From Akkermansia sp. (GTDB taxonomy: Bacteria; Verrucomicrobiota; Verrucomicrobiia; Verrucomicrobiales; Akkermansiaceae), in assembly GCA_045641125.1 (NCBI GenBank), contig JAZUGI010000024.1, positions 1,487-65,486 of the forward strand: 64,000 nt of DNA, read 5' to 3'. The notes beneath the pieces were generated by a model. That model saw nothing but the letters and a program-made list of their open reading frames with translations, was not told where the DNA came from and made no database searches. Positions 29,502-60,970 of the stretch are shown here, piece after piece. The translations under genes were made by a program, and so were the position numbers. Numbering within the stretch: the stretch's first letter is position 1; each line of letters begins with the position of its first letter.

Positions 29502-29762
29502 ATGGCTGATATCGAAAACAACTATCAAATCAAGTACAGTGAGAAGTGGGGCTCCTTCCTGCAGCAGGAGGCTTCCCGTCTCGACAAATACGTCACCGTG
29601 GAAACCGGGCTCTCCGGCAAGATGGTGGCCATGGACCAGTACGGCCTGCTCTCCTTCACGGAAAAGCAGAGCCGCATGCAGTCCACCCAGGTGGCGGAGG
29701 CGCCCACCGTGCGCCGCGTCATGTATCCCCATATCTACACCAAGGCGGTGGGGTTTAGTTAA
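29502..29762 (+). pseudogene. 5' fragment (84 native codons) of a host ORF split by prophage insertion
   Basis: It has GC-rich, host-like composition. The reading frame ...YTKAVG(F) enters the att core at 29745-29752 and then stops in phage DNA (..FS*). It continues in the same frame at 60959. A possible phage-capsid-like family is only a weak impression. Confidence 0.7.
29738..29756. repeat. attL (imperfect direct repeat, core GCGGTGGG)
   Basis: CACCAAGGCGGTGGGGTTT here versus CACTAATGCGGTGGGCTTC at 60952-60970. Identity is 15/19 with an identical 8-bp core. An abrupt composition change occurs right after it. Confidence 0.7.
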
Positions 29763-29836
29763 TATGACGGTAACGCACTGATATAGCGTAGTCTTTAAAG
29801 GCGTGAAATGCCGTGTTGCAATTTTTCTTGCAAAAT

Positions 29837-30367
29837 TCAGTCGCAATTTGCAGCCGCTTTAGCCGCTCTGCTCCTTTTTACCGCCTCACCAATCTTGCGG
29901 CGCGTTTCCTCCGAGCGTGTGTAAAGACCTTTCGTTCCCTTGTTCCAAGGCGTGCAACCTTGTTTCGCCTTACTCATCTTTTGACGAGTCTCCTTTGATT
30001 TCGGTCGCTTGATTCCTTTATTTGACTCACTGATTTTTTTCTTCGTTTCCTAGGAGCGGTGTTGTCCAAGGATTGTAACACCACCCCTCGCGCCGAGTGC
30101 AAGGTTCACGCAAAGTTTGCCATATCGATTTTTCGCGTCCTCGATAAATTCCTTTTCCAGCTTGTCTATCACTTCTTGATTGTGCGCTACCGCAAGAATT
30201 GACTTCTCACACTCATCGGGGTGTTGTTTGTAGATACGCTTCCATATTTTGCCCGAGCCTGTGTATTTCGTGTCGAGGCAAGGGCAAAGACACTTACTCG
30301 GCAACTTATGCTGACCGATATACACCCTGCCAGTCGGCACGTGAGTCATTTTGTAGATATAGAACAC
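29837..30367 (-). CDS. GIY-YIG homing-endonuclease-like protein with NUMOD3 repeats (1 in-frame TAG)
   Basis: N-terminal FYIYKMTHVPTGRVYIGQH (GIY-YIG). The track ORF stops at TAG 30050-30052. Read-through adds 70 aa with NUMOD3-type repeats (ETKKKISESNKG, SKETRQKMSKAKQG, SEETRRKIGEA) and ends at TGA 29837. Confidence 0.8.
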
Positions 30368-30474
30368 ACCGATATTTATCCACCTTTTCTCTGCATGTCA
30401 CAAAAAAGTCTTGCAATCTCCCGCGAGATGGTTCAAAAAAAGCAGCGGTTACTATCCACCCCCAATAATACGCT

Positions 30475-30762
30475 ATGGAATTACACATTGAAATCATTGC
30501 CCCGAACGGTGTACAAGTCAAGCAGATTTTCTCCAGCATTGACGTCACCGAAGATGAAGACGGTGAGCTTGAAAAGCTGACAAAGCAAGTTCAGGCTGGC
30601 GGAATCATTACGCTCTACACGCAAGATGGAGCACTAATGCTGAACACGTCCAAGCTCGTCTCTCTCGACGCTTTGAAAACACTCGAAGCCACCTTTAATG
30701 AAGATGGCGAAGAGGACGGAACGGAAGAAGTCTACACCGTGGACATTGTGATGAGCGTGTAG
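30475..30762 (+). CDS. hypothetical acidic protein (TAG-free, terminates at TAG)
   Basis: A 95-aa ORF. Reading through its TAG would run into antisense of the next gene, so TAG is probably a real stop here. Confidence 0.5.
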   Translation: MELHIEIIAPNGVQVKQIFSSIDVTEDEDGELEKLTKQVQAGGIITLYTQDGALMLNTSKLVSLDALKTLEATFNEDGEEDGTEEVYTVDIVMSV

Positions 30763-30774
30763 AGACACGGCTCG

Positions 30775-32418
30775 TCACTTCACTAGAAAGACAAGCTCGG
30801 CAAAGCTCACCGACTGCAAGATTGGAGCGCGGTCGATTTTGCTTTGTGCGGGTGCGTGGTCTTGCCAAAACACTTCGGCAAGTTCTTCCACCGTGTGTGT
30901 GGCGTGCGGCTCCTCATCGGCGTTCACGCATGCTGCATTGTCGTCTTGCGTCTGTGCTATCCAGTCTTGCCTGTAGCTCTGCGCGCATTGCTCGATGATG
31001 GTGGCAAGGTCTGCAACTTCCTTGTCGGTGTAGAAACTGTCGTAGCATTGAGCCACCCTGTAACCACGCCGCAAGAGTTCTTGCCTCACCGCCCGATAAA
31101 TGCAGCTCTCATGCAGAAAAATCTCGGACGAGCACGTCTTGCCTATCACGTCACGCATGCGGGTGAATATCTGCTCGATGATTGGTTCAGCCCTGCTGAT
31201 GAGCTCTGTCAGTTGTTCTCCGTCTAAGTCACCGAACTGTAGCTTGCTCTTTATGTGACCCTTTACTTCACCAGCCGTGCGGGCAAAATAGAAGCGCATT
31301 GCAAAGCGTTTGAAAAGTTGCCGCTGCTCGTTGTCCTAAAACTTCTCTGGACACATGAGCTGATACAAGTCTATGCTGTCATCTAACCACACGCCGTGAT
31401 TGAGGAAGTACTGAACACGGTAGATGGATGACTTGACGTCGTAGTGCGCGGGTGCTTCTCCCCATGCCGCCGTGAGCAGGCTCTCGCGTTCCTCCACGCG
31501 CATGCAGGCGAAGTGACTTGTCTCGCGTATGGACGTCTTGCTCACGTTCCCCTTCTATGACCGCTTCACCTTTACTCGGAACTTATATCCGTCATCCTCT
31601 GCAACGTACTTCTTCCACAGTTTGCCGTAGTGTTGAACAACGCGCTCGATGACGTCCTCATTGCTCAGATTTCCCACTTGTTGCGAGACGTATTGTGTGA
31701 TTGGAATGGAGCTGGGAACGCGCTTCCCACTAGGTCCATTTGAATACTGCTACATATGGGGGGGGTAGGGTAGAGAAAGAGAGAGAGACGAGGGTTGAGG
31801 GCTGACGCCCTCTTGATGGCTGACGCCATCTTGACACACACATGGAGCACAATGCGTGGACGCATAGGGAACGCTCGGCGCGAGTTCATTCGCGCTCACG
31901 ATTTTGCACTCCCTGGCAATGCTTGAAAGGTTGTCCATGACGTAGGGATTAACCCAGTACATTCTTGCATAGCCGCATTGTCCGTCATCGTGGAAGCAGT
32001 ACGACTCATCAGCAACCGCAAGCAAGCCCACCGATACGCCCTTTGCAATCAGATCCACAAGTGCGCGCTGCTTCATTAGCAAGGCGGCTTGCAGGGCAGT
32101 CTCGTTGGAGCTAAGCTGAAACGGTGGGAAATCGAAGGGGTCGTACAGGGTGTAGTCAAGTTCTACGGCGCGCACCTTGTTCAGGCAATGTTGGCCAAGC
32201 TGCAACAGGTTCGTCAGGTTGACCCTCCATTTGCGTCCAAATAGGCTCTACAGCGTTTGCAGGGTCACGGGGGTAGTTCTACCGTCAAATGAAAACAACG
32301 CGCTCCTGCCGAGTCCTACGCGCCTCAAACGGGCGTTTTCCTTGGAGTCTGCCATGTGCTGCTCCAATTCCAGCAGCGTCTCAAATAATCCAGTTTTGGG
32401 ATGGGGGTTCTTTATCAT
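30775..32418 (-). CDS. large hypothetical protein, 547 codons, 4 in-frame TAGs (possibly replication-associated; function not recognised)
   Basis: The track fragments 32205-31750, 31545-31336 and 31299-30775, plus an N-terminal extension from ATG 32418, are all in one frame. They are separated only by TAG at 32248, 31750, 31555 and 31336. There is no TAA or TGA for 548 codons in roughly mid-40s % GC DNA. Confidence 0.65.
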
Positions 32419-32675
32419 TGCAAAATCTATTTACACGATTTTTCCTCGCAGGGTGGGAAAAGGGAAAAATTTGAAAAAAACTCGCCATCGGCACCCCCAC
32501 GCGCGGTGAGATGGATAAATAGCTAGTGATGGAGAGAGTCCATCATCCTCGATTATCATTGCAACCTTGGCGGGGTGCTCATTCTGTGAGTGCTCCGTCA
32601 TTGTTTGTGCGAGTCTGTAGAACTTCGTTACAATCTCTCATGCACGGCATGGGAAAATTGGATAAATAGCAGAGT

Positions 32676-32993
32676 ATGGAAAAAGAGGATTGCACAATCA
32701 GATTGGACGTTGAAAAGATTTTTGGAAGCGTGTTCACCGACAAGCAGTACAAACAGTTCAGAAAAGCAAATGACTATTGGGAAGTCATCGGTGAGTTGAG
32801 CAATCTGCCATGCAAGAGATTTTTGAAAAACGACTTCAACCTTGCGGGTGAGTGTGGCATGTATACCTACAAGCGCGCAAAGAATGAGACAAAGGCGAAG
32901 CAGCTTGACAAAGCACTTGAACGACTGCACGCATTGAACGAGAGCGGTGCAATCAGCAAAGAGTGCGAAGATGAATTTTTGTATTACGTCTAG
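32676..32993 (+). CDS. hypothetical protein (possible read-through to TGA at 33056)
   Basis: A 105-aa Lys/Glu-rich ORF preceded by the GGATAAATAGC motif. It stops at TAG 32991, and read-through would add 20 aa. Confidence 0.5.
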   Translation: MEKEDCTIRLDVEKIFGSVFTDKQYKQFRKANDYWEVIGELSNLPCKRFLKNDFNLAGECGMYTYKRAKNETKAKQLDKALERLHALNESGAISKECEDEFLYYV

Positions 32994-33375
32994 TGGACGG
33001 AGATAGTCACGGGCAACCGCATGGAAGATGAGTTTGAGGGCATGGAGATAGACTGATGAAAAAGCCTCACTCATCGTGTAAATATCTTGTGGATAAATCC
33101 GTGGGAAGCGGTATTCCCACCCCACCGCAAAGGGCATGTTCCCTGGCGGTGTAGAACTTCATTAAAATCTCCCTTAGTAGTATCATAGTTGAGTCAGCAG
33201 GACTATAACTGCTTTTTTCATATCAAGAGCGGGCGGTCAACGAAAGTTGCCGCTCGTTTCTTGTTCTACACGCGCCGCACGAAAAAAAAGTTCACTTTTT
33301 TTCAAGTTTTTTGCGAAAAGGGTAATTTGGGAAAAGTGAAGCGATGAAAATTGTATAAATATCTTTATAACAATT

Positions 33376-33843
33376 ATGAACACTACTACAACTATTAAAC
33401 AAATCAAGGGCGCGTCTAACTACGGCGTGGATGAATAGGGCAACGTGTGGAACACGAAGAGAAACAGAATGCTGAAAGCATGTTCAAATGGATGGGCGGG
33501 TTACAGGCAAGTGAAAATCGTGTTCGATGACGGAAGAACTAAGTGCATGACAGTTCACAAAATTGTGTGGACCACTTTCATGGGAGACGTGCCAGCAGGG
33601 TTGGAGATTAGCCACAAAGACGATGACAAGACAAACAACGCGCTCGACAATTTGGAAGTCATCACGCATGCGTAGAACGTAGCGAGACCAGGACGCCGCA
33701 AGGCGATTGCATTGGCAAAAAAGAAGGGCGTAGGCTTGCGCCGTGGTTATGTGAACAAGAAGGGTCACATGAGCGAGAAGAACAAGGAAATGCACCGCAC
33801 AATTTCAAAGAACTATTGGAACGAGAAGAAGGGAAGCCACTAA
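33376..33843 (+). CDS. HNH homing-endonuclease-like protein (NUMOD4 plus HNH_3 type), 2 in-frame TAGs
   Basis: SNYGVDE*GNVWN is NUMOD4-like. GYRQVKI...VHKIVWTTF...ISHKDDDKTNNALDNLEVITHA*N is the HNH_3 core. TAGs are at 33436 and 33673 and the stop is TAA 33841. Confidence 0.8.
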
Positions 33844-33877
33844 AAGACGGCGAGCGGCGTGTTATTTTCTGCTAGGT

Positions 33878-36801: not shown

Positions 36802-37404
36802 ATGCAAGATAGTGAGATAGATTTAGACGAGATAGTTGCATAGGCTAATGCTCTAACGAGTGAGACTCCATCTGATTTACCGAGTCGTTATAAAGCGGTG
36901 GAGGACACGTTCTACAACTAGGCTAGGAGCATGCAGTAGTTGCTGACTGACACCATCGGCACAGACCATATACGAGACGTCCGCATGATGGCGGCTGCGT
37001 GCAAGGATATAATGAACAACTACAACGAGACATGTCGCCTGCGAAAGCTGGCCGAGATTGAGTGCGGGCGTGTTGTTCCAATGCGCGTGTTAGAACAGTA
37101 TCAGCGCGATATTCTGCCAGCCATCGCCAACGGTATTGACAACCTACGCATGGAAGTCACGAACATTCTACAGCCGCAAGAGCGCGCTTCATTTCAAACC
37201 GCGTGGAACGCTGCATATCCCAAGTTCGTCAGCATGCTGGGTGAGGCTGCTTCTAAGCTGCAAGGGTACATTGAAGAAGCCAAGCGAGAGGCAACAGGCA
37301 ACGCGCCGACAAAGAAAGAGCGCGCAAAAAACACCGCAATCTCCAAGGAGAAAAAAGCACAGTCCGCGAAGTTGCGATACAACCGTGAGAGAAACATGCG
37401 CTGA
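36802..37404 (+). CDS. putative small terminase subunit (by position), 3 in-frame TAGs
   Basis: ATG at 36802, TAGs at 36841, 36919 and 36937, and TGA at 37402 overlapping the terminase large-subunit ATG. The C-terminus is basic. Confidence 0.4.
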
Positions 37405-39137
37405 TGACTATGGACGTTGTTGATGACTTTGTGAGCCTACTGCAAAGAGACGTTTGTGATGACCCGATATAGTGGCTAGAGGACAACGTATACCTCGACT
37501 CCATCGTGTCTCCAAACGCGCCTGGTCCTTTATCTCTCGCAAATCAGCCGTGGGCATACCAAATCATCAAAGACTTTGTAGACCCCGCCATCCAACACGT
37601 GACACTATGCACAGGCGCGCAAACAGGAAAGTCGCTGCTTATGCAACTTGCTTATTTGCTCCTTTGCAAGTTTAATCCACAGCCGAGCATTATCGCTTTC
37701 CCCGATGACTCACTTGCAGAGCGGTTTATCAAGACCCGCCTTAAACCGATTATTCAATGCAATCCTGAATTTGCTGCAAAGCTACCCCCACCGCAAGTCA
37801 TCGGTCAGAAGAACATGCTTTTCGTAGAGGGTATGCCCACCTTCTACACAGGTTGTCGCTCACCCTAGAAGCTCTGCTCCATGCCCGCTGCTTATATCTT
37901 CTTGGATGAGGCTGCAAAGCTCGTTAAAACGAAGTCTACGGAAGCTCACCCATACAAGCTCCTTAGCGAACGAAACAAATCTTTCGCCCTGCATAAAATC
38001 ATCGAAGCGTCTACACCCGCAAGCGAGTCAGATCCATTTTGGGAGTCTCTGACAAACAGCTCATGGAGCAAGTTCAAAATGCCCTGTCCGTGGTGCGGTG
38101 AGCTGATGGAGTTTACCTTCGACAAAGAACACCTGAAATGGGAAGGCAACACGCAAGAGGAAGTGATGAAGTCAACCCGCATTGTCTGCACGAACTGCTG
38201 CTGCGAGATTGACGACAACATGCGCCGCGAGATGATGAAGCATGGCAAGTGGTACGACTCCAACACAGACCATGAGACAGGTCACACAGGGTATCACATC
38301 AACAGCCTTTATAGCTGCTGGACCACCATCGGTGAAGTGGCTTGGGAGTTCGTCAAAGCTAATCACTCCGTCCTGCGTGTAGAGGCTCTTCACAACTTTT
38401 TCAACTCTTGGCTTGCTATGCCGTGGACAGAGTACAAGACAAACGTCACAGAGGAAGATGTGAAGGCTCTGATTGACCTGAACGCCTACAAGAAACAACT
38501 GCCCGCCGATATGGTTTACCTTGCCATGGGATGTGACCCTGGACAGGCTCAAACTCACTACGTCGTTGCCGCCGTGTGTCAGGGTGGAGTCATCAAAGTG
38601 GTAGACTGGGGATAGCTTGCCAGCGTGTCATCAGCAAAGGGCAAGCAGGGCGTGGCATGGTTCCTTGAAAATCAGACGTACGAGTTCAACGGCAAGCCGT
38701 ACAAGGTCGATATTTGCTACTGTGACAGCGGCTATATGACTGGCACGGTCTACGATGAAGCGCGTTCTACCTACCCCGGACTGATTAACCCCACAAAGGG
38801 CAGCGGCGCAAGCGGAACATACGGTCGTTCGGCGGTAAAGACCAACGATTTGGACTTGTTCATCTACTCCGATTTTTCGCTCAAAGTGGAGCTCTACCAA
38901 AACATGTTCAACAACAAGGAAATCGTTTTGCCAAGAGACACAGACGCTGAACTCATTGCTGGACTAAGCGGGCAAATGATGGTTGTTGACCCCAACGGAA
39001 AACGTCATTGGCGCAAGGTAGACGGCGACCACTATGGAGACTGCTTGAAGCTCTGCGTGTTGTCATCGTGGGTTGCATGCGAAAACGATGACGTGCGAGA
39101 CAGGTTGCGCCCTGCAATAGAGTTCGCGTCAACCTAA
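37404..39137 (+). CDS. terminase large subunit, lambda GpA family, 3 in-frame TAGs
   Basis: Three track ORFs (37506-37868, 37881-38615, 38625-39137) and an N-terminal extension share one frame and are joined by TAGs at 37470, 37866 and 38613. It has Walker A CTGAQTGKS, GCRSP*KLCSMPAAYIFLDEA (Walker B region), the zinc motif CPWCG...CTNCCCE and a nuclease-domain D/E pattern. Confidence 0.85.
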
Positions 39138-39166
39138 TTTCCTTTTTGAGTTTAATTTTAGACAAA

Positions 39167-39451: not shown

Positions 39452-40951
39452 ATGCCAAGACAAAAGACAGAGCAAACACCCGTGAAAAAGAGAGTCAAGG
39501 GAAGTGGCACGGCAACGAAGGTGACGAACTCATACGGCTTGGACGCTGGTGCATACAGCCCCAATCGCTCGTTCAATACTTTCCCAGTAGTACAGCGGCG
39601 CGATATAACCGCCTATCGCCGTCACCGCATTATCTCACGCGCGCGGTCGTTGTTCTACAACTCACCCGAAGTGCGTTCGGCGGTTAAAACGCTCGGCATG
39701 CTTGTCGGCAACTTGAAGCCGCTGGCAAACTCCAAAGATGAAGAGTGGAACAAACTCGCACAAGAAGCCTTTACTCGCCGCACAAACAACGCAAACACGT
39801 TCGAGCTGACAGGCTCCATGAACTTCAACCAGTTTTAGAGCTACATAGAGGAACAGGCGGTAGTCGATGGGGATTGCCTTGTAGTGCTCACTACGAGCCG
39901 TGATGGCGGTGGGGTGGCAGTATACCCCGCTGACATGATTGGCACGTCCTAGGGCAACGAGGACGTCATTGATGGCGTGGAATTGGACCAGTACGGGAAG
40001 CCGCTTTACTATCACATCGTGTCCAAAGATACCGAAAAGCGGATTAAGGCGTCCAGCGCGGTGCTTTATCGCCACTCGCCTGACCCTACAGACCAGCGCG
40101 GCTTGACCGATTTGATTGCAGCTATAACCACCGCGCAAGACCTGTACGAGCTTAACTCCTACAACAAACAGAGCGTCAAATTGAGCGCGTCTTTTGGAAT
40201 TGTGGAGACGGTGGACAACAACGTGAAGCGCACAGACGTGAGTGATCTGAACATGCTTAGAAACGGCGGCACGATGGGCGGTCAAGCACCATGCGGGTGT
40301 GAGATGGCTCCACAGTCTCCCCTAACGGTGAACGGTGTTAGCGCGCTGACGCTTTCACCAGGACATGACCTAAAGACCATCACCGACAACAGACCATCCA
40401 ACGAAGTGCGTAACTTTGCGCGTGACCTTGTGGACAGCATTGCACACTCGGTTGGATTAGACCCTGAAATCCTTTACAGAGTCAAGGAGATGGGTAGCGC
40501 AAGCGTTCGTTTCTGCATAGCCAAATGCAAAGACTGGACACGCCCTCGCATCTACGACAAGGAAGCACTTTGCAACCGCATTTGGAAGCACATTATCAGC
40601 TGCGAGATAGCCGCTGGACGCTTGCGCCCCTGCAAAGACCTAGACTCCATGTTTGACGTCAGATGGGTGTAGAACAGCAAATGGAGCATAGACCTTGGAC
40701 GTGATGCGAACTCTGCAATCTCCCTTATACGAGAAGGGTTGATGAGCCGTGATGAATTCTGCTTGGAGAACTACGGCAAGACCTACGAAGAAGTGATGCA
40801 AGCAAACGTTCAGAGCTTGTCTCGTGCGCTTGCCATGTGCCAAGAGCTAGGCGTCGATATAAATGCCGTGATACCAGGACAAGCGGGGTCAACGCCGATG
40901 CAAGTTCAATCTACAGACAACACCAACGAAGAAGAAAATGAACGGAATTAA
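39452..40951 (+). CDS. portal protein, lambda family (Phage_portal_2-like), 3 in-frame TAGs
   Basis: The pieces 39452-39838, 39839-39952, 39977-40672 and 40739-40951 are in one frame. TAGs are at 39836, 39950 and 40670. It has RHRIISRARSLFYNSPEVRSAVKTL near the N-terminus and the W....IDLGRDANSAISLIREGLMSRDE C-terminal signature. Confidence 0.75.
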
Positions 40952-41159
40952 GGAAATCATCATAGCTTTGCGGGATAATCCATCAGCCGCTATTTTGGCT
41001 CTATGCTTTGTCGGCCTTGGATATATGTACACAGATTTTAGAGACTATATTACGACTCAAAATCAGGCGCAGGCTGTATTGAACGAGCGTTTTATCGCCG
41101 CACTTGAAAAAATCAACGACCGCCTAAACGTGATAGAGACAAAAATCAAAAATCAATAA
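40938..41159 (+). CDS. small membrane protein
   Basis: 73 aa with one TM helix (AAILALCFVGLGYMY) and a coiled tail. Confidence 0.4.
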   Translation: MNGIKEIIIALRDNPSAAILALCFVGLGYMYTDFRDYITTQNQAQAVLNERFIAALEKINDRLNVIETKIKNQ

Positions 41160-41219
41160 AATATGACTGACGCAGTTTAGGTGACAGTTCAATTTCCCTT
41201 TTCAAACACAAATAGAAAA

Positions 41220-42296
41220 ATGATAGAATTCAAAAATCAAGTTATAGCTTCAGGTGAAGAAGCAGCCAAAATCTTCGTCACGGGAGATATAACCGAGGAA
41301 ACGGTTGTAGAACTCACAAAAGATTTGGAGCTCTGCAAAAATTCAGGCGTTAAAAAAATCACCTTCTGCGTGAACTCTCCTGGTGGTTCGGTGAGTGATG
41401 GCATGGCACTATACGACCTTGTTGTTTCTCTCGCGGATATAGAGACGGAAGCAGAAATATAGGGATTGTGCGCTAGTGCTGCGACTTACTTGCCACTTGC
41501 ATGCGACACCATACGCATTCACAAAAACGCCGACATGATGCTTCACGAGCCCGAAGGCGGCTTCTATGGCACGCTTGACACCGCGTCTGCTGACTTAGAC
41601 TATTTCAGCACCCTGCGTGACCGTATCATTGCCCTTTATGCTTCACGCACAGGTCTATCACCCGCCGAAGTAGTGGACATTCTCAAAGCAGCTCAATTTC
41701 TCAATGCCACTCGCTGCAAAGAGCTTAATCTTGTTGATGAGATTATCGGTGGAGAGGACGAGACAGAGACACAGACAGAGGAACAGGAAGAAGTCAGCAA
41801 CGAGGATGAGACTAAGGCTGATGAAGGTTCATCTGACGCTGGTTCATCGGAAGATGAGCAAGAGGAAACGGAGGACAAGTGCAAGAATGAAAAGGTATTC
41901 TCACTCAAAAATCTTGTGAAAATCTTAAAGGCGAACAACATCAGTTTCCTTAAAGCAGAGAACGATGAGTTTGCAGAGCAAGCCGAAGTTGTGAACACTC
42001 TCACCACTAGAGTCAAGGACTTGGAGACAGAGCTAGAAGCAAAGCAAAAGTCCTACAACGAGCTTCTGAACAGGCTTGAAGAAACGACAAAGGACATGGA
42101 GAAGAAAATTCAACTTGCGGTTGCAAACAAGATTGCACAGTTCGGTTATTCTGACACCTTGCCCGCACCATCCAAAGCACAAAACAAGCGCATGGATGAA
42201 GCAGAGTTCCGCAACGCCGTGAAAGAGATTTACGCGACCAAGGGATATGCAGCCGCCGCTGATTTTGTCAACAAGTACAATTCAGGGCAGCTCTAA
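41220..42296 (+). CDS. ClpP-like (S14) head maturation protease fused to an acidic/coiled scaffold domain, 1 in-frame TAG
   Basis: VNSPGGSVSDGMALYD...*GLCASAATYL...MMLHEP contains the Ser and His catalytic motifs. TAG is at 41460. The C-terminal E/D-rich and coiled-coil region is typical of scaffolds. Confidence 0.8.
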
Positions 42297-42372
42297 TTTC
42301 CTTTTTCAATTTTAACGTAGAGGGGCAACTCCTCAAAAATCAAAGTTCAATTACACAAACAATTTTTTCATT

Positions 42373-43293
42373 ATGTACAACAAATTATTTCAGAACAAAG
42401 TGACCGTCACCAACGATGTGACTGGTGAACAGAACGTAGACGAGAACGCCTTGCAAGGTACTACTACTCCCAAGGACACCCTTTGGAGCGTGGTGCTTGA
42501 GAAGGCTATCGACGCCACCAAAAAGACGCTTGTTCCGTTGAAGACTACGACCTACGACGTGCAAGAAGCGTTTAACTATATCCCACCGTCTGCTGGACAG
42601 GCTAAGCCCAATATTCAGGTGATGGTGGTGACTGACGCTGGTTCCGTTGACCATGATGGCACGCACGACCACAAGTCTGCAATGCAGTCAAAAATCGTTT
42701 CCGTTCCGTTAACCCGCTACAGCCGCACGTTCGGTATCAGCATGTTTGACGCTTAGAAGGGATTTGAAAAGACCGCTACTCAAACCGCTGCTGTGGTGAA
42801 CAAGATTTTGCAGGAAATCACCAAGGACTTTGCAACCACGGTTGCCACTACGGAGAACTCCGTGACCGTTGCTGAAGTGTCTCCTTCTACCGTTGCCCAC
42901 ACCGTTTCCGCTGCGTTCGGTGATTATGGTGACGTGGAGTCACTTGTTCTTAACCCGCAAAACTACGCCGAGCTCATCCCTGACAATGCTCTGTCATTGA
43001 AGCTGGAGAGCGGTGCGTATGGTATCGGCTCAATCTACAAGTCCTCACTTCCATCTGGCACCGAGGGTATTCTCTACAACGCGGACGCCGTGGCTTGCGC
43101 CTTTGCTCGTCCTGCTTGGAGTGAGTTGCCAAATATCGAGGTCGTGGAGTTCGAGGTCGAGGGTATCCCATTCCGCATGAAGATTGAGGCTGACGGTGAC
43201 ACGAACATCATCTATCACACCGTTGACGTGTTGTTCGGTTGTGCCGTGGCTAATGACCGTCACATTGCGAAGCTGGTTGTTTCTGGCAACTGA
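42373..43293 (+). CDS. major capsid protein (by position and size), 1 in-frame TAG
   Basis: 306 codons directly after the protease/scaffold gene. TAG at 42754 joins 42373-42756 with 42793-43293. A strong hairpin follows. Confidence 0.65.
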
Positions 43294-43851: not shown

Positions 43852-43877
43852 GGGAGCCTTACTTGGCTCCCTTTTTT
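43852..43877 (+). terminator. rho-independent terminator
   Basis: GGGAGCC-ttactt-GGCTCCC followed by TTTTTT. Confidence 0.6.
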
Positions 43878-44440
43878 CTTGCGTAGTACGCTTTTCTTGC
43901 TTCGCTGATTTTCAATCTCGTTTCTTCTGACAACTTCTATCCCGTTTTGCTTTTGTTGCCTTTGTGTGCAAGTTTCATTTTGGAGATTTGCTCGTTTGAA
44001 TAAACTCCAATTTTACCCTTGTTCCAAGGGATATTCCCTTTAAGTGTTTCGCTGATTTTCTTTCTTTGTGACTTGGGAATGATTTTCCCTTTTTGCGCTT
44101 CGCCTATTTTTCGTTTATGCTCTTCGGAATGAGGAATACCCTTTAACGCACCACCTACACCCTCACCACCGTCTGCAAGGTTGACACAATACTCACCCAT
44201 GACTGCTCGATAATGAGCAATGTACCTTTTTTCCAATTCGTCTATCGTCTCTTTAGTGTTGGCATAAGCGATAATCACCTTGACGCACTCATCAGGGTGT
44301 TTCTTGTATATCCTTCTCCAAATCTTACCTGAGCCATGATACCCATCATTATCCGCAGTTTGCCCCTATGGAAGTTTGTGCTGTCCAACGTACACGCGCC
44401 CGCTTGGAAGATGAATCATCTTGTAGACGTAAAAGGTCAT
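43859..44440 (-). CDS. second GIY-YIG/NUMOD3 homing-endonuclease-like protein, 2 in-frame TAGs
   Basis: MTFYVYKMIHLPSGRVYVGQHKLP*G... has a TAG at 44366. The track ORF stops at TAG 43937, but read-through gives KLSEETRLKISEARKAYYARKKGAK, another NUMOD3 repeat, and ends at TAA 43859. It is a paralogue of 29837..30367. Confidence 0.8.
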
Positions 44441-45729: not shown

Positions 45730-45755
45730 ATTTCCTTTTTCAAATCATTTATAGC

Positions 45756-46175: not shown

Positions 46176-46189
46176 CGTCAATTTTCAAC

Positions 46190-49638: not shown

Positions 49639-51678
49639 ATGAGCAAAGGCACAATCCAAGTTGACGTACAGGCAAACACGCAAAAGGCGACACAGTAGGT
49701 GAAGAAGCTGCAAAGCGACTTGCAGTCAAGCTCATCTTCGGGCAAGTTCGATTTTGGTGGACTGGATGGGATATAGAGCAAGTTCGCAGAGATTAAGAAC
49801 GGACTGACCAGCATAGGTGAGACGTCCTCAATCAAAACAGTAGCACAGGGGTTGAAAGGTCTTGGCAAGGGTGCAGTCGGTGCGGGTGCTGCGATAGGCG
49901 GTCTAGCGGTGGTTGTGAAGACCGTGGACGCGCAGATTGACCGCATGATTCAGACTGGCATGGAAGCAGAAAAACAGTTCCAGCGCACAAACGTCACGCT
50001 CACCAATCTTGACCGCAATCTTGGCGGCGCGGGCAGGAGCTTCGATGGCTTCACAAAAGAGCTGCAACTCATGGCGGCGAACGGTGTCAATTCCGTGGAC
50101 GAGCTTAATTCAGCAGCGCAGTAGTTGATGACCGCATTCGATGGCAACTCTACAAAGGCGCGCAAACTTCTATCCACCTTCGATGACCTTGCGGCTGGCA
50201 CGGGTGTTCAGGTGAGCGATTGGGCAAGCATGGCGTCAGAGGTGAGCCTGACAGGTGTTTCCATTAAGGACTTGACGCGCCTTTCAAATAAGGGCATACC
50301 CATCTATCAGGCACTCGGTGACGCCATGAACGTCACAGCAGAGCAAGCCGAGAGCGTGGCAAAGGCTGGACAGGTGGGGATGGAGGATTGGTTCGACGCT
50401 ATCGAGAAATTGAGCCAACGATACAAGGGATTATCCCAGCAGCTAAGCTCCTAGACGCTGGAAGGGGCGCAAAGCACGTTCGAGCAGTCTAAGGGGTTGA
50501 AGTACCAGGGAGCCGCCGAAGGGTACGCGGAAGAGCGTGTGAGAGGCTTAAACGAGATGAGCGACAAAATGCAAGAGTTCGCTCAAAATCCCGTGTGGCA
50601 AGAGACAATCTCCGTCCTTGGCGGTGTTAAGGCTGCATTTGAGAATGACGTTATTGACCCCCTGAAACAACTGCCCGCAAAGCTGGGTGATGGACTGGCA
50701 ATCACACTCGTTGGCATGGTGTCAGATCTGAAAGGAGCAGTCGAGGCGGGAGTACAGGCTAAGCAGTCTCAGAAACTGGCAGACGTGACACGCGCCGCCG
50801 CCGAGGGTATAGCTGGCAAGCTCACAGCAGGGCAGATGGAGGACGTCCTTGCTCAAATGAAGAGCGGCAAAATCAACCACGATAGCCTTCCACAAGAGCA
50901 TTGGGATAGGATGATTGCCTAGCTGGAGAACGCCCTCAAGCAGCGCAAAGAACAAGACGCACAGGACAAGGAGAAAGAGGATGCCAAAATAAAGGCCGAG
51001 AACATGCGGCAAGCGTAGCTCAAATATGGAACGCTGTAGGACAAATTAAAGGCGGTGAGCGGGCGTGATGGTGCAATGTAGATACGGATAGACTCACCGA
51101 AACAGATACAGGCGGCTATTGACAGGCTGAAATAGGACTTGCTCGATGGGAAGATTGTTGACGTCAAGGCTGGTGAGGACACCCTAAAAACGCTGGAGAG
51201 TTTGCAACGAGAATACGAGCAGCAAACACAGGCAGCGGCAAGGGCAGAGGAAGAACTAGCACGCAAGCGCAAAGAGTCAGCGGACGCCGCATTGCAAGCA
51301 AAGACTGCCGAGACGAAGCAGTATATCGAGGGCAAGGCAAGTATCGGCAAGCAAATTACAGACGCACAGAAAGACTACGACACCGTGACCGCAAAGCTGG
51401 AGCGCATGCAACAGGCAAAGCAAGTCATCCAAGACGAAGAAGCGCACGGCATTTTCCGCAAGAAGTGGGGCAACCTAAACGTGAGCGACGTCTCCACAAA
51501 GGAAGCAGAGTTGCTGAACGAGTAGAAGCAAGCAGCGTAGAAGCTGGCAGAGCTTAAACAGAGCTATGACACCTACGACCAGCGGTGGAATCAGGCGCGC
51601 ACGCAAATTCAAAACTTCTTCACGTCTGTAGTCGCCGGCAACATTGTTCCGGTCAAGGGCGTTCCCGTCACAGGTTAA
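49639..51678 (+). CDS. tail tape-measure protein, 11 in-frame TAGs
   Basis: 680 codons in one frame spanning the track ORFs 49852-50124, 50125-50454, 50497-50922 and 51139-51525. The TMP core is recognisable (GVNSVDELNSAAQ*LMTAF...LAAGTGVQVSDWASMASEVSLTGVSIKDLTRLSNKGIPIYQALGDAMNV) and the C-terminus is coiled-coil. TAGs are at 49696, 49774, 50122, 50452, 50920, 51016, 51037, 51079, 51133, 51523 and 51538. Confidence 0.75.
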
Positions 51679-52106: not shown

Positions 52107-52303
52107 GTCAGTCGTTCTTAGTGTGGCTCATGTCACTAATCGCGTGCGAGACAGGATGGCACTTGGACTATATCCGCTCGTTGCCGTTCTATCAGGTCTT
52201 GCAAGTTCTAGCTTTCAAGCTGCAATGGGAGGGCAATGAGCTTCGCTGGAAGAAGCGCGCATGTGACAACGAGCGGCTGAACAAGTTTATTGAGTCACTT
52301 TAA
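52103..52303 (+). CDS. hypothetical small protein
   Basis: A 66-aa ORF with an uncertain start (TTG 52103, GTG 52121 or ATG 52130). Confidence 0.35.
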   Translation: MSQSFLVWLMSLIACETGWHLDYIRSLPFYQVLQVLAFKLQWEGNELRWKKRACDNERLNKFIESL

Positions 52304-52329
52304 TTTTCCTTTTCAACTTAAAGATAGAA

Positions 52330-54748: not shown

Positions 54749-54775
54749 CGGTGATTTTGGGATAAATAGCAGGGT

Positions 54776-55489
54776 ATGAAAAAACTTTTTTAGATATGGG
54801 AGGGCAGTATACCCGACAACGTGCAGAAAGAGATTGACGACCTACGAGACAAGGCAACGGCGGCGGGATATGAGTACCACCTGTACGACCTGTCAATGCT
54901 GCTGGCAGAGATACAGGACGAGAACTTGAAAGAGTCCTTGCGCCGCGCTAAGCGGTATCTCCCCAAATCAATGTTCGGCAGCATGCTTAGTGACTTCTTC
55001 CGCTATTGGTGCTTACAGGATGGTGGAGTCTATATGGACACAGACGTTCTCATCACCACCGACACGTTCCCCGCATTGCCTGACGCTGATGGTGTGTTCA
55101 CTTGCTCGGAGCAGACCGCAAGAAACAACCTGAACACATGCGTCACGGTCTGCAACGGTGACAAGGGGCGCATATACGCGCGATTTTTCACAGAGCTGGC
55201 AACAGACAGACTCAAAAAGACGTGGCTGGACTCTTTCGAGCAATGCAGGGCGAACGCTGGATGGCTTATTGAGCACAAGTGGTCGTTGATTTCGTACCTA
55301 GGTCCTGCGTTCGTGCGGCATTATCTGCCACACTTGTTCGGCGCAACTGGAGTGACCGTCCAGCGCATGCCCTACGAGCTATGCAGCTCACACGACCCGC
55401 GCTCTGCAATTTTCCATGCGGGTGACGGAACGTGGGTGAACGGCGGCAAGGGAAACCCCACGGCACAGCGCAAAATCTCGACTTTATGA
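54776..55489 (+). CDS. DXD-motif glycosyltransferase (Gly_transf_sug-like), 1 in-frame TAG
   Basis: MKKLF*IWEGS...GYEYHLYD...LSDFFRYWCLQDGGVYMDTDVLI. TAG at 54791 lies where the adjacent paralogue has Gln (VHQIWIGG). Confidence 0.75.
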
Positions 55490-56100
55490 AGCACCCTACA
55501 ACAGTTCATCAGATTTGGATCGGAGGCTCGGAAATGCCGCCCTTGGAAAAAACGTGCGTGGATAGCCTTAAAACGGCTTGCGAGCGTTTGGGGGTAGGGT
55601 ATACCCTTTGGAGCGAACAAACGCTTAGGAGGGCATATCCAGACGAAGGATTGTGGCTTCTCGCAGACAAGTTAGCCCCCACCGTGCGGAGAAGCGTGCT
55701 TTTGAGCGACTATTTCCGCATGATTGTGCTTAATCCTGGTGAGTGCTACCTAGATACCGATATGCTCTGCCACCACACACCCGCCATCAATTTCAAAGGC
55801 TCGTCATTGCTCTGTATGGGTGAATTCTGGGACAGGCACAAAGAGGGAACAGGCTTCATCGGCGTGCAAGACAAGTTCACAAAGTTGGACGCTTTGAAAC
55901 AGGCATGGCGTGAGCAGACGCAAAACTTGGACGAGTCGTGCGTTGACAATTTGCTTGCAGCCTATGGACCGGAGTTTTTGAGAAGCACGTTGCAGCGGCT
56001 TGGGATAAAGTCGAACATTCTACACCGCGACCAAATCACGCACGTTCAATGGAAGAACAAGGGCGCACTCATTCACATGGGAGCTGGTTCGTGGGTGTGA
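55486..56100 (+). CDS. DXD-motif glycosyltransferase paralogue (TAG-free)
   Basis: MKHPTTVHQIWIGG...GYTLWSE...LLSDYFRMIVLNPGECYLDTDMLC, with ATGA overlap with the upstream gene. Confidence 0.7.
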   Translation: MKHPTTVHQIWIGGSEMPPLEKTCVDSLKTACERLGVGYTLWSEQTLRRAYPDEGLWLLADKLAPTVRRSVLLSDYFRMIVLNPGECYLDTDMLCHHTPAINFKGSSLLCMGEFWDRHKEGTGFIGVQDKFTKLDALKQAWREQTQNLDESCVDNLLAAYGPEFLRSTLQRLGIKSNILHRDQITHVQWKNKGALIHMGAGSWV

Positions 56101-56128: not shown

Positions 56129-56326
56129 ATGACAAAGAAGAACAACTAGGAAATTTTGAAGAAGTACGAGAACGAGCGCAACGAGTGTCTGATTTTCACA
56201 AGGGTCATGGGATATTACAGACCTGTGACGAGCTTCAATATCGGTAAAGCGCAAGAGTTCAAGGAGCGCGTGTGGTTCAACACGCAAAAGTTCAAAGACG
56301 CGCATGCCGATAAAAACGCACGATGA
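56129..56326 (+). CDS. stand-alone NrdD C-terminal glycyl-radical-domain mini-protein, 1 in-frame TAG
   Basis: 65 codons. TRVMGYYRPVTSFNIGKAQEFKERVWF matches the class III RNR C-terminal signature RVCGYLg....FN.GK..E.K.RV. TAG is at 56147. An alternative TTG start lies at 56156. Confidence 0.6.
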
Positions 56327-56349
56327 CGATTTTGGATAAATATCTGTGT

Positions 56350-56442
56350 ATGGAAACATTTGCATTTTTGACAATCGCTGGACTCATCATCAGTAACATT
56401 ATCACAACCGCGCTGCTCTACAACACAACGAAGAAACACTAA
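56350..56442 (+). CDS. 30-aa single-TM peptide
   Basis: METFAFLTIAGLIISNIITTALLYNTTKKH, preceded by the GGATAAATA motif at fixed spacing. Confidence 0.35.
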   Translation: METFAFLTIAGLIISNIITTALLYNTTKKH

Positions 56443-56764: not shown

Positions 56765-56766
56765 GC

Positions 56767-57060: not shown

Positions 57061-57083
57061 CCCTGCGTTTCTATATGGTGGCA

Positions 57084-57512
57084 CTAGTAGTCAGACGGTC
57101 GCATGATGGTGGTATGCTCACGCTTGCCCTCATCGTTCTCTGCGTCTGTAATAATCCACACGCGCTCACCGCCTATCTCCCACTCTGACAGAATACGCTC
57201 ACCGCTTTTAAGGGCGCGGAAGTTTGCCCACCAGTCAGACCCCTTTGTCAATCCCCAGTTGCAAAAGCGGTGTTCCTCAAGGGCGTGTGCAATGTCGTAG
57301 CGGTATTCTTCCATGCGCTCTGCCAGCTCTGCCGTGATAACCACCTGTCCCAGCGGGAAATCAACGTAGGTGAAATGCAAGCCATGCGTGGGCTCACGGT
57401 GGAAGAACTTGGCAATCTCACGGCGCAGATTAGGCATTTTCTCATCGTCTATGGGGAAGAGCCTAGACTTGCCATCCCCATAGGGATTTTTCAGTAGTAG
57501 CACGGTCATCAT
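57084..57512 (-). CDS. hypothetical early protein (TAG-free, terminates at TAG)
   Basis: 142 aa from MMTVLLLKNPYG. Stop codon is TAG at 57084-57086. Confidence 0.5.
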   Translation of the reverse strand: MMTVLLLKNPYGDGKSRLFPIDDEKMPNLRREIAKFFHREPTHGLHFTYVDFPLGQVVITAELAERMEEYRYDIAHALEEHRFCNWGLTKGSDWWANFRALKSGERILSEWEIGGERVWIITDAENDEGKREHTTIMRPSDY

Positions 57513-57516
57513 GGCT

Positions 57517-57792: not shown

Positions 57793-57808
57793 ATTTGGGA
57801 TTTCCTTT

Positions 57809-57958: not shown

Positions 57959-58042
57959 GCTGTTCTTCCAAAGTGCAAGCTATCTTCTGTACCCTTGCTC
58001 ACCCATCAGGGCGCGCACGCATTAACGCACGCGCTCACCCGT

Positions 58043-58285: not shown

Positions 58286-58508
58286 AGTCTTTTCTGTTTT
58301 GTTGTTGAAGCAGGGCAACACGTCTTTCGCCCTATGATGATACTTTACCTGGAATTATTCCAGTATGCAAGTCTTTTTTTCGTCGAAAGTCACTTTTTTT
58401 CAAGGAGTAACGACTGCCGAGACTGGGAAGCCGCATGGAATCGGCGTTTTATTTTTTATACGAAAAATAGGAAATTTCCAAATTTTGCTATTTCGGAGCA
58501 TTTTTTGC

Positions 58509-58537
58509 TTTACAAATTGGGTCGGGTGTGGTACAAT
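58509..58537 (+). promoter_or_regulatory. sigma70-type promoter for the 58547 gene
   Basis: TTTACA, a 17-nt spacer, then TACAAT preceded by TGg (extended -10). It lies 10 nt upstream of ATG 58547. Confidence 0.55.
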
Positions 58538-58546
58538 ATCGACCTT

Positions 58547-59074
58547 ATGAACGAAATCGAACACGACGCCGCGAGCGTCACTGAAAACGGGGTTGACCTG
58601 AACGCAGGGCAGCCGGAAGCAAAGCAAGTAACTAACAAGAAAAATAATTGGTACGCCGAATGGATAGACGATGAGTCCTGTAGGGATATCGACTGTATCT
58701 ACAACGCAATTAGGTACATTGAGGAAATTAACGAGATGGCCGCGCGAGGTGTTGATACAGAGGATGAAGAAATACGGGATGCGTTATATATGGCGATTAT
58801 GGATTACACCAAAGGAGCAAAAGACTGGAATCACGAAATATTGAAGGAAAAGTTGGGACTTGGGTTTATGAGTGTACACACTGACGGAGATTGGAAGTTC
58901 CAAGTCAGTGAGGTCAACCCAAAATACATAAGGTACGTCTACGACAAATTATGTGAGCAAGGACGTGCAAAGAATGCGCCTAGTGTATATACTAGAGAAG
59001 AGAACAGTGAGAGTTACACAGATGACGATGGCTATATCATTATCAAATACGAAGTAATAAAGTCGCTCAAATGA
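58547..59074 (+). CDS. hypothetical protein next to the integrase (TAG-free)
   Basis: 175 aa from MNEIEHDAAS within track ORF 57884-59074. The upstream part of that ORF is a shadow. Confidence 0.5.
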   Translation: MNEIEHDAASVTENGVDLNAGQPEAKQVTNKKNNWYAEWIDDESCRDIDCIYNAIRYIEEINEMAARGVDTEDEEIRDALYMAIMDYTKGAKDWNHEILKEKLGLGFMSVHTDGDWKFQVSEVNPKYIRYVYDKLCEQGRAKNAPSVYTREENSESYTDDDGYIIIKYEVIKSLK

Positions 59075-59103
59075 ATCATGGGGGCAAGGCAAAGCACAAT
59101 CAA

Positions 59104-59138
59104 GGGGAGCAGCCGCAAGGTGAACTCCCCTTTTTTTT
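59104..59138 (+). terminator. rho-independent terminator
   Basis: GGGGAG...CTCCCC stem followed by TTTTTTTT. Confidence 0.5.
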
Positions 59139-59155
59139 GCACCTGTGCGGCGCGT

Positions 59156-60760
59156 CTACTCTATCAAATCTTGCTTGCCTGTGAGCTGCTTTGCATTGCC
59201 ATCTTCCCCAGCCGCCGACACGTTTTCCAGCACCTGTGAGAAGAAGTCGGACATGATTGTGTTCACCCTTTGCTTGTCTTTCATCACTTCCTGTGCAAGC
59301 CGCAACGCCTCATCATTTGCGCCCGTGTCAACGGTGCTGCTCACGTCACTCTTAAAGCTGTCCACCGAACTATATCCCATGCTCTCCAAGGTCTTTTTAA
59401 TCACCAGCTCCCTGGCTATCCTCTCGGCTTCTCGCTGTGTCTTGCTCTGCGTCTCTTTGTTCAGCCGTGCAAGGTAGTCTCGCCGCTGATTTTCTTCGTG
59501 TAGATACCGCGCGCCGATATACTGCTCCATATACTCAAGCATGCCCGCCGTGGACTTTTGGGGGTCAAGGTCAAACTTTAGGTAGTGCCGCTCCTCTACG
59601 GTGCGCGGCGAGTGTCCAACGAGATAATTAATCATCGACTCGTTAAAGCCACCTTGCGTGAGAACTGTGATGGCGGTGGCTCGGAGAGAGTGTGGGCTAT
59701 ACGCAAAGAAGCGGCGATTGAACTTTGTGTCGATAGCCGCAAACAATCCCAAGTGCTTTATGCAAGACAGGAGGAAATTTCGCACATTCTGCATAGCCGA
59801 CTTGTTCAGGTTTTGAGGCTTCACTCCACAGCGGCGCAAAGGGAACAGGAGCGGTGAGTCTCCATCTTTTGGCTGGCATAGAGTCTTCACTTCTGTCAGC
59901 AGCTCATGCATTTTGTCCGTGATATAAAGGCGCGCGTGTATCTGCTTCTTAGCAGTCTTTTTGAAAATCTTGGTGATTACCCGCCGCTCCATATCCACTT
60001 CTTCCCAGCGCAAGCCTACCACGTCTCCGATTCGCCACCCTGTAACCATCATCAGGTAAACGATGGCATAACGCTGGAAAATGCGTTCGGGTGTCATTGT
60101 GTACCCGCGCCCGTTGACGTCTTTCTTGTCCTTAGCCTTGGCAAGAATGAACTGGAGATCTGACTGGGAGAAGATACTGCGGCGATTGCCATGCTGCTCC
60201 TCTCGCAGCTCCTTAAATCTAACGCCGCTGAACGGATTGTAGTATTTCAGCGCAGAGCCTCTGAACTCCTTTAGCGCGCCGCGCAGTACCACGTCCACGC
60301 GGTTGAGAATGTCGCAGAACGTGTTGTACGAGTACGGCTCCAATGACGCTGCAAAATCTTCCACAAGCTTGTCGTCTAGCTCGTGCAGCTTCATCCCCTT
60401 GCGGTGTTCTTTCAGGTAGTCAACAAAGAGCTGGAAGCGGCGTGTCTCCTGCTTTATAACGTCCTCATTCTTGCTGATACAGATGGCAGATTGAGGCAAC
60501 GACTCTAGGTATCGCACGGCGTCCTTGGCTTCGTTGATTGCACCATGCAACACTTCAATCTCATCGGTGGCAAGCTCGATTTTGGCGTACTCTTTTTTCA
60601 GCTCCTTTATCCGCGCCGCTTGCTCTCGTTTGGTGGGCTTCGGTGTCTCACTCTTCACTTGCTTGCGACCGTAGGGGTACTTCATGCCCTGCTTCACCTT
60701 GGAGTAGTCCTTGTAGATGATGACGTAGGCATTCTTTTCGGCATTGTAGGTGATTTTCAT
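59156..60760 (-). CDS. int: tyrosine recombinase / phage integrase (TAG-free, terminates at TAG)
   Basis: 534 aa from MKITYNAEKNAY. The catalytic-domain motifs are TGWRIGDVVGLRWEEV (Arg I), HSLRATAIT (H-x-x-R) and LVGHSPRTVEERHY (His...Tyr). The upstream 221 aa of the 755-aa track ORF cross attR and are not real. Confidence 0.9.
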   Translation of the reverse strand: MKITYNAEKNAYVIIYKDYSKVKQGMKYPYGRKQVKSETPKPTKREQAARIKELKKEYAKIELATDEIEVLHGAINEAKDAVRYLESLPQSAICISKNEDVIKQETRRFQLFVDYLKEHRKGMKLHELDDKLVEDFAASLEPYSYNTFCDILNRVDVVLRGALKEFRGSALKYYNPFSGVRFKELREEQHGNRRSIFSQSDLQFILAKAKDKKDVNGRGYTMTPERIFQRYAIVYLMMVTGWRIGDVVGLRWEEVDMERRVITKIFKKTAKKQIHARLYITDKMHELLTEVKTLCQPKDGDSPLLFPLRRCGVKPQNLNKSAMQNVRNFLLSCIKHLGLFAAIDTKFNRRFFAYSPHSLRATAITVLTQGGFNESMINYLVGHSPRTVEERHYLKFDLDPQKSTAGMLEYMEQYIGARYLHEENQRRDYLARLNKETQSKTQREAERIARELVIKKTLESMGYSSVDSFKSDVSSTVDTGANDEALRLAQEVMKDKQRVNTIMSDFFSQVLENVSAAGEDGNAKQLTGKQDLIE

Positions 60761-60951
60761 GGCTGGTTGTTTTGGGGGTTGTGACCAGCGTAGCACGGCA
60801 CTCGGCGGCGTGCAAGCCTTCGTTGCAAAAAAGTTGCAATTTTTTGTCGGGAAATGGGTCATTTTTTGCAATTTTGGCTCATACGCCCTCCTGCTCATAT
60901 CTCCACAACACATAGAAAAACAAGGCATTACGAGGCTATAAAAAACAAATG

Positions 60952-60970
60952 CACTAATGCGGTGGGCTTC
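60952..60970. repeat. attR (imperfect direct repeat, core GCGGTGGG)
   Basis: CACTAATGCGGTGGGCTTC. Composition returns to GC-rich immediately to the right. Confidence 0.7.

Follow-up and report, generated by a model that had tools for sequence, protein, structure and literature searches.

Predicted reading of TAG as glutamine in an Akkermansia prophage that carries no recognisable suppressor tRNA

A discrete prophage and its genetic code

The 64-kb stretch of Akkermansia sp. DNA analysed here (the window; GenBank assembly GCA_045641125.1, contig JAZUGI010000024.1) contains at positions 29753-60951 an intact temperate siphovirus-like prophage. Nearly all of its replication, head, tail and accessory genes are, on codon and alignment evidence, written in genetic code 15, in which TAG specifies glutamine (Gln, Q). 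The element carries no recognisable gene for a suppressor tRNA, a release factor (RF) or an aminoacyl-tRNA synthetase (aaRS), and the agent that reads TAG may be a suppressor tRNA encoded outside it.

The limits of the element are sharp. GC content runs at approximately 47-53% between about 29.7 and 61 kb, against 60-66% in the flanking chromosome (48% overall in the prophage, 63% in the host), and this profile, together with open reading frame (ORF) coverage under alternative codes and comparison with empty sites, delimits a body of approximately 31.2 kb. The body is bracketed by an imperfect 15-bp direct repeat, of which the left copy (attL, 29738-29752) reads CACCAAGGCGGTGGG, with the core GCGGTGGG at 29745-29752, and the right copy (attR, 60952-60966) reads CACTAATGCGGTGGG; the coordinates given for the element in an earlier sequence-only reading of this DNA (the original prediction) are correct. 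Insertion has split a host orphan capsid-like gene, which supplies the attachment site (attB), into a 5' part at 29502-29752 (+), matching positions 1-80 of the 293 in Pfam Phage_capsid_2, and a 3' part at 60967-61627 (+). When the two halves are joined in silico the match extends over 1-293 of 293 positions (E=7e-72), and neighbourhood comparison finds the site empty in four prophage-free strains (L015-L018, 99% identity), in which the capsid-like gene is whole and encodes 303 amino acids (aa). As this gene is split in the window, and as alignment with L015, at 99% across 21836-29752, picks up again at 60952, the insert is a discrete 31.2-kb element.

The chromosome around the prophage uses the standard code: its genes are intact under code 11, TAG is the stop codon in three of about 28, and the same genes are present in the prophage-free strains. 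They include housekeeping genes for IMPDH, TypA/BipA, a threonine dehydratase-Maf protein, GH20, gltX and queA, and the cluster mates of the flank proteins (exact, or with at least 90% identity) are proteins from metagenome-assembled genomes (MAGs) that bear the name Akkermansia sp. The attachment gene itself is a lone Phage_capsid_2 gene of host GC content, flanked by genes for a PEGA-domain protein and a hexapeptide transferase and with no other phage genes nearby; the intact copy in L015 occupies 7666-8577. In L011, which comes from another sample, a sister prophage sits in the same capsid-like gene (9134-9907), but the DNA past its 3' end has other content (DUF3089, YkuD), so that at least two genomic contexts are seen for the capsid-like gene. 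A second, outer prophage, which the split capsid gene had first suggested, was rejected because the capsid-like gene stands alone among housekeeping genes in every strain.

Recoding was the premise of the original prediction, and it holds. ORFs of at least 300 aa cover 0.13 of the island under the standard code and 0.57 when TAG is taken as sense, whereas coverage in the host flank is 0.87 under the standard code. The 36 curated genes of the element contain 59 in-frame TAG codons alongside 203 CAG and 194 CAA; neither TAA nor TGA occurs in frame. TAG accounts for 13% of Gln-type codons and is found at least once in 27 of these genes, with one to three occurrences in most genes and an even spread along them (Kolmogorov-Smirnov p=0.20). 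As for the residue inserted, the second TAG of the large terminase gene (GpA ATPase and nuclease by Pfam; 37404-39137, +; three in-frame TAGs) aligns to Q in 15 of the 15 closest homologues. In standard-code relatives Q is the commonest partner of TAG, at 22 of approximately 70 positions against a background of 3.4%, and the rate at which Q is matched there is 28-56% at TAG sites and 44-62% at CAG and CAA codons.

Comparison with the sister prophage in L011 indicates that these frames are maintained. Per-gene nucleotide identity between the two is 81-97%, 12 of 16 comparable TAG codons are retained, and synonymous changes predominate (crude ratio of non-synonymous to synonymous rates, dN/dS, approximately 0.25); the tape-measure protein is 95-96% identical to its L011 counterpart. 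Conservation of TAG together with the synonymous excess indicates that the genes are under selection as code-15 frames. Decay or pseudogenisation was considered and set aside, as the in-frame stops are of the TAG type only and are kept in L011.

It is, by the same token, quite unlikely that the prophage is defective or stranded, in the sense of having been recoded in some other cellular context and of never being productively translated in its present host. Such a history would fit the wide GC gap to the host (48% versus 63%), the lack of a tRNA in the element, and the lack of a recognised lysin. In L002-L005, L009 and L014 an Amidase_3 endolysin gene separates the small gene beside the portal gene from the ClpP protease gene (L014 2078-2704, L003 13746-14393, L004 8795-9421); none is present at the equivalent position in the window (40951-41163), a tblastn search of the rest of the window gives no copy either, and no lysin or holin is recognised among the proteins of the element. 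Against this, the att repeats, the integrase and all structural genes are intact under code 15, with neither TAA nor TGA in frame, and the L011 sister, in the same gene in another sample, conserves its TAG codons under purifying selection. Further, the integrase cluster has eight members on different contigs, and four strains have the insertion site empty, a polymorphism to be expected of a recently mobile element.

Search for a decoding agent in the element and its family

ARAGORN reported no tRNA or transfer-messenger RNA (tmRNA) in the entire 64-kb window, and no Rfam family reached its gathering score there. With permissive filters (E<=10) applied to 29400-61200, Infernal with the Rfam models returned no tRNA or tmRNA and seven chance-level matches to unrelated families. 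Lowering the ARAGORN thresholds (to -ps60) and allowing introns produced hundreds of noise calls, none of which has a CTA anticodon within the island; the only two 'cta' calls at -ps60, at 1219-1297 and 22925-23002, both lie in the host flank. A custom scan for anticodon loops (a 7-nt NTCTARN loop closed by a stem of 4-5 bp) gave two matches, at 42286 and 40634, which fall within coding genes or at their ends and are not accompanied by a T-loop. At the protein level, Pfam searches of ORFs of at least 250 aa and of the curated set, translated with TAG as Q, found no release-factor (PCRF/RF-1) or aaRS domain in the element. Thus the absence of a recognisable suppressor tRNA from 29738-60970, as originally predicted, is upheld by ARAGORN, by Rfam/Infernal at E<=10 and by the CUA-loop scan, and that of an RF1/RF2-like or synthetase gene by the Pfam domains. 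It had further been argued that TAG decoding must come from elsewhere, and this stands in so far as nothing recognisable lies inside, so that the source must be something not annotated in the element.

Two candidate structures were discarded in the course of this search. The hairpin at 33196-33213, considered as a CUA tRNA, has a loop of 8 nt that lacks U33; a run of T comes directly after it, and it is read as a terminator. A group I intron in the recoded relative L004 (508-729, -), considered as a possible intron-split tRNA, interrupts a small NrdD-like gene instead.

The aaRS gene nearest to the element is the host gene for glutamate--tRNA ligase, gltX (26452-27807, +; TIGR00464 equivalog, 440.6 bits against a cut-off of 290), which lies outside the element and is 100% identical in the prophage-free L015. 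Both gltX and queA, a gene of queuosine synthesis, act on tRNA, and the pair (26452-28811) adjoins the prophage at 1-3 kb to its left. Their placement is probably a coincidence, as both are identical in prophage-free strains. A related matter is the choice of the host between GlnRS and the GluRS/GatCAB route, which bears on how any CUA tRNA would acquire glutamine.

Two general statements of the original prediction fare less well. It held that recoded phages usually carry a suppressor tRNA, and often release-factor or synthetase genes, and that reliance on outside decoding would be an unusual dependency. In the survey of Borges et al. (bioRxiv 10.1101/2021.08.26.457843), a TAG suppressor tRNA could be detected in no more than 40% of the TAG-recoded genomes, RF2 turned up in eight genomes, and synthetases were seen 'rarely'. 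Cook et al. (PMC11210395) detected a Sup-CTA tRNA in 375 of 715 table-15 phages (52.4%). A code-15 phage without a tRNA is accordingly about every second case, and a recognised open problem. The TAG dependency of the present element is real, but it is typical of the tRNA-less code-15 class and a clean example of that problem.

The wider family points in the same direction. Homologues of the terminase, at 73-86% identity, are found in many metagenomes, and the family includes both standard-code relatives (L002/L010, L003, L005, L009 and L014) and TAG-recoded ones (L004, L006-L008, L011 and L019), which are interleaved in the terminase tree. The standard-code L014 has the same GC content as the window phage (48%) and is 82% identical to it in the portal and 89% in the major head protein. 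There is no tRNA, tmRNA, release-factor or synthetase gene in the examined stretches of seven recoded loci, among them L004, L006-L008, L011 and L019, nor in those of seven standard-code relatives (L001-L003, L005, L009, L012 and L014), and Rfam returned nothing relevant in the examined stretches of relatives. Since none of these stretches carries a tRNA, the tRNA-less state is a trait of the family and not a loss in the window copy. L004 and L019 have one protein in common, which is 95% identical; if they are the same phage, the two between them represent the greater part of a second recoded genome, in which the integrase is again free of TAG. Interleaved code states, combined with the lack of a tRNA in sampled members, fit a decoding capacity that existed beforehand outside the phage. 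No gene present in recoded relatives and missing from standard-code relatives was found in the regions covered, and synteny is alike in both code states.

Scans of IMG/VR found no relatives, and a metagenome scan found one distant relative only. The standard-code L002/L010 (GCA_045598885.1) and L009 (CAAGMI010000343.1) are whole-phage-sized contigs, of 31.5 and 29.0 kb, which have been binned into Bacteroidales and Rikenellaceae MAGs; we do not take these bins as evidence of host, as either the family spans phyla or the bins are contaminated by phage contigs. For the window phage, Akkermansia is the proven host.

Two meanings of TAG and candidate decoding mechanisms

The gene for the 534-aa tyrosine integrase (59156-60760, -; Pfam Phage_integrase) departs from most of the element. 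None of its 25 Gln-type codons is TAG (P(0 TAG)=0.03), and TAG at 59156-59158 is its stop codon, which is kept in L011, whereas the read-through frame beyond it is not. The integrase of L019 is likewise without TAG among 14 Gln-type codons. A 142-aa gene of the integrase-proximal module (57084-57512, -), recognised by six-frame reading and with homologues in L011 and L014, also appears to end on TAG (57084-57086), with T as the next base; the frame past this codon is junk-like and overlaps a plus-strand gene, from which we infer that the stop is real. Because the integrase gene, and seemingly the 142-aa gene, stop on TAG, the codon would have two meanings in the element, namely stop in the integrase-proximal module and glutamine elsewhere.

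The base that follows TAG offers a view of how the codon may be read. Of the 59 in-frame TAG codons, 25 are followed by A, 19 by G, 8 by C and 7 by T, as compared with 97, 135, 87 and 76, respectively, of the Gln codons of the element (Fisher p=0.007 for A and 0.02 for purines). A post-TAG purine bias recurs in L004 and L006 (p=0.002), and across the pooled 105 TAG sites a purine comes next in 78% versus 59% (p=1e-4). Among natural amber suppressors a purine, chiefly A, is optimal at this +4 position, with a 10-fold effect for supE, a tRNA-Gln(CUA) (PMC6266110). The bias thus argues for a tRNA-type decoding that competes with active RF1. The likeness to Escherichia coli supE, which inserts glutamine at UAG against RF1 and has the same preference for purine or A after the codon, is one of sequence signature only, and no such tRNA was found for the Akkermansia host.

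We therefore lean, with a confidence somewhat short of even, towards a glutamine-accepting CUA suppressor tRNA of the supE type, encoded outside the element, as the agent of TAG decoding. We favour it because neither the element nor its sampled relatives carry a tRNA, and because code state flips among near relatives. In a lysogen, host RF1 would stop translation at every TAG, so that the lytic programme would be silent at the level of translation, and the integrase-proximal module alone would be made, its integrase being readable in the standard code; this corresponds to the gate that Borges et al. propose for the Garnet and Topaz prophages. Lytic growth would need efficient amber suppression, near the level of a normal sense codon, in which the suppressor tRNA would compete with RF1 and insert glutamine at UAG. 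Such a tRNA could be supplied by the host chromosome, by a helper phage, or by another mobile element that is resident or co-infecting. No source was located; the observations are the absence of such a tRNA from the element and a signature of tRNA-type suppression.

Efficiency is the point on which ordinary leakiness of the host fails. Near-cognate reading of UAG yields glutamine, and the original prediction had listed read-through by a near-cognate tRNA-Gln among its possible sources. In its simplest form this would be a leak through the ordinary host tRNA-Gln(CUG) that needs no dedicated factor and occurs at full RF1 activity, and it would agree with the identity of the inserted residue and with the modest load of TAG, at just 13% of Gln-type codons and one to three in most genes. 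Yet the gene for the 679-aa tape-measure protein (49639-51678, +; Pfam TMP_3) has 11 in-frame TAG codons, and those for the terminase and the lambda-family portal (39452-40951, +; Pfam) have three each. By simple arithmetic, the yield of full-length tape-measure protein would be approximately 5e-15 at 5% read-through per codon, and 5e-4 even at 50%. A leak of a few per cent would therefore be useless to the phage, and per-codon efficiency must be high. In addition, glutamine is conserved to the same degree at TAG sites as at normal Gln codons, and we regard a near-cognate leak as highly improbable.

Several considerations weigh against an outside suppressor tRNA. A constitutive, efficient amber suppressor would burden a host in which approximately 10% of genes end on TAG, and a phage lineage in need of a factor that it does not carry risks dead-end infections. 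No suppressor tRNA was found in the approximately 33 kb of host flank in the window, or in the host flanks of L011 and L015-L018. The +4 bias is statistical in nature, based on 59 sites (105 when pooled), and could have other causes such as codon-pair effects. Finally, approximately two-thirds of the proteins of the element match no Pfam or PHROG family, which leaves room for a phage-encoded factor other than a tRNA.

This last consideration leads to the main rival, a possibility which we would place on the doubtful side, namely that the element encodes its own unrecognised code-switch factor. A protein might neutralise RF1, or might reprogramme a host tRNA such as tRNA-Gln(CUG) or tRNA-Trp; alternatively, the factor might be a suppressor RNA that is highly non-canonical, split or permuted. 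The protein option gains from the lack of a family match for most element proteins, and the RNA option from structured non-coding stretches at 32540-32675 and 33080-33360 (z -2.1 to -2.9), and from the suspicion of Borges et al. that non-canonical tRNAs have gone undetected in the 60% of genomes without one. A self-contained phage would, moreover, not have to rely on luck in each new host. However, the Rfam tRNA model is blank at E<=10, and no 7-nt CUA loop has a plausible cloverleaf around it. The regions covered hold no recoded-only gene and equal synteny across code states, and a purine bias after TAG would have little purpose under a mere removal of RF1.

Common to the outside suppressor tRNA and to the protein form of an own factor is a code switched, in this Akkermansia phage family, without any phage-borne tRNA, whether by standing suppression from the host or a mobile element, or by a phage protein that reprogrammes host tRNA-Gln or RF1. 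We put this forward tentatively, as something possible and not as the expected outcome. If it were true, code 15 would belong to host and phage as a pair and not to the phage genome, and the approximately one-half of recoded phages that are without a suppressor would be accounted for. Under standing suppression in particular, phages would drift into and out of using the amber suppression available in the host or community.

The closest parallels to the present element are the Garnet and Topaz phages, TAG-recoded prophages in standard-code Prevotella and Oscillospiraceae, for which a role of the code as a gate between lysis and lysogeny has been proposed (Borges et al., bioRxiv 10.1101/2021.08.26.457843). 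Like them, it is a small temperate phage (22-34 kb in their case) in a standard-code chromosome, with an in-frame TAG in nearly every gene, a spared integrase, a GC content below that of the host and close relatives that use the standard code. Unlike them, it resides in Akkermansia (Verrucomicrobiota), whereas the hosts in Borges et al. are Firmicutes and Bacteroidetes; it sits in an orphan capsid-like gene and not at a host tRNA gene, where their boundaries lie; and its integrase gene also ends on TAG. Because the host phylum differs, membership in the Garnet or Topaz clade is doubtful. The code-15 phages of the crAss-like and Lak groups also use TAG as glutamine in late genes within a host on the standard code, and a report on crAss-like phages gives proteomic proof of glutamine at TAG (PMC9523058). 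They are, however, large lytic phages that frequently encode a Sup-CTA tRNA, sometimes with RF2, or with theta ribozymes beside the tRNA, none of which is found in the window element.

Among cultured phages the best match is Akkermansia phage Moulinsart (ON453896), an induced prophage of A. muciniphila. It has the same arrangement of small terminase, GpA-type large terminase, small gene, lambda-type portal, ClpP protease, head, tail and tape-measure genes and, like the window phage, no tRNA, but it uses the standard code at a GC content of 53.5% and is only a distant relative (37.7% identity in the terminase, 37% in the portal).

Full-text literature searches found no report of an Akkermansia or other Verrucomicrobiota host, or of a host of 63% GC, for a TAG-recoded phage. 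The present locus thus extends TAG recoding to a Verrucomicrobiota prophage and to a 63% GC host, which does not obviously follow from the low-GC route to recoding described in the literature. How TAG is decoded in the tRNA-less half of recoded phages is an acknowledged gap, which this locus does not solve, but for which it provides a test case: a prophage that is complete and exactly delimited, near-isogenic strains in which the site is empty, a sister at the same site, a culturable host genus, and close standard-code relatives of equal GC content (portal 82%, major head protein 89%). The post-TAG purine bias, for its part, may serve as a cheap and transferable test for recoded codons that are read against competition from RF1.

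Gene content and further features of the locus

By Pfam, the genes for the GpA-type terminase, the lambda-family portal and the ClpP protease are arranged in that order, which is the order of the lambda-like GpA-terminase siphovirus group to which Akkermansia phage Moulinsart belongs. The third of these is a ClpP-type prohead protease and scaffold fusion (41163-42296, +; Pfam CLP_protease; two in-frame TAGs), and it is followed by the major head protein gene (42373-43293, +; PHROG 283; one in-frame TAG); tail genes are also encoded. At the position held by the endolysin gene in other relatives, L006 has an unrelated 165-aa gene. The two DXD-type glycosyltransferase genes (54776-56100, +; Pfam Gly_transf_sug), the second of which is without TAG, lie downstream of the tape-measure gene. 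On the early side, a leftward operon includes a 547-aa gene (30775-32418, -) with four in-frame TAG codons and a homologue in the standard-code L003, for which no Pfam or PHROG match was obtained. An HNH endonuclease gene (33376-33843, +; Pfam HNH_3) has two in-frame TAG codons, and a GIY-YIG/NUMOD3 homing-endonuclease-like gene (29837-30367, -; Pfam) has a second copy at 43859-44440 (-). The largest non-coding gap, at 33057-33375 (+), contains hairpins and terminator-like stem-loops, with folds at z=-2.1 and -2.9; it is not a tRNA and matches no Rfam family.

A gene of approximately 65 aa at 56129-56326 (+) resembles the C-terminal glycyl-radical region of the anaerobic ribonucleotide reductase NrdD (…RVMGYYRPV…NIGK…EF…) and is kept across the phage family, at 508-729 (-) in L004, 14829-14999 in L011 and 14386-14556 in L003. 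In L004 it is split by the group I intron mentioned above (Rfam RF00028, 81.7 bits), an arrangement reminiscent of the T4 nrdD/sunY intron.

Three sets of repeated motifs may have regulatory roles. A motif of approximately 25 nt, TAATTTCCTTTTTCAATTTTAA…, occurs at 39134-39162, 42293-42321, 45727-45755, 46155-46178 and 52300-52328, at or just past the stop codons of late genes (those for the terminase, the protease and others); it may serve in translational coupling, in termination or in late regulation. The motif GGATAAATAGC lies 8-10 nt 5' of several start codons (32513-32537, 32660-32684, 54760-54784 and 56334-56358), and a 22-mer, TGTAGAACTTC(G/A)TTA(C/A)AATCTC, is duplicated in the divergent early control region (32616-32637 and 33150-33171); both probably act as promoters or operators.

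The segment next to the integrase gene differs between the sister prophages (58380-59102 in the window, 11658-12794 in L011). In the window it holds a TAG-free gene of 175 aa (58547-59074), in L011 a gene of 292 aa, and the segment looks like a slot for cargo ('moron') genes that would be expressed in the lysogen.

In the host flank, a single 696-aa ORF at 24253-26343 (-) encodes a threonine dehydratase (PALP and regulatory domain) that continues into a Maf domain at the C-terminus. An ORF call of 696 aa is also made for this gene in L015-L018, and hence it is either a real fusion or a conserved in-frame overlap.

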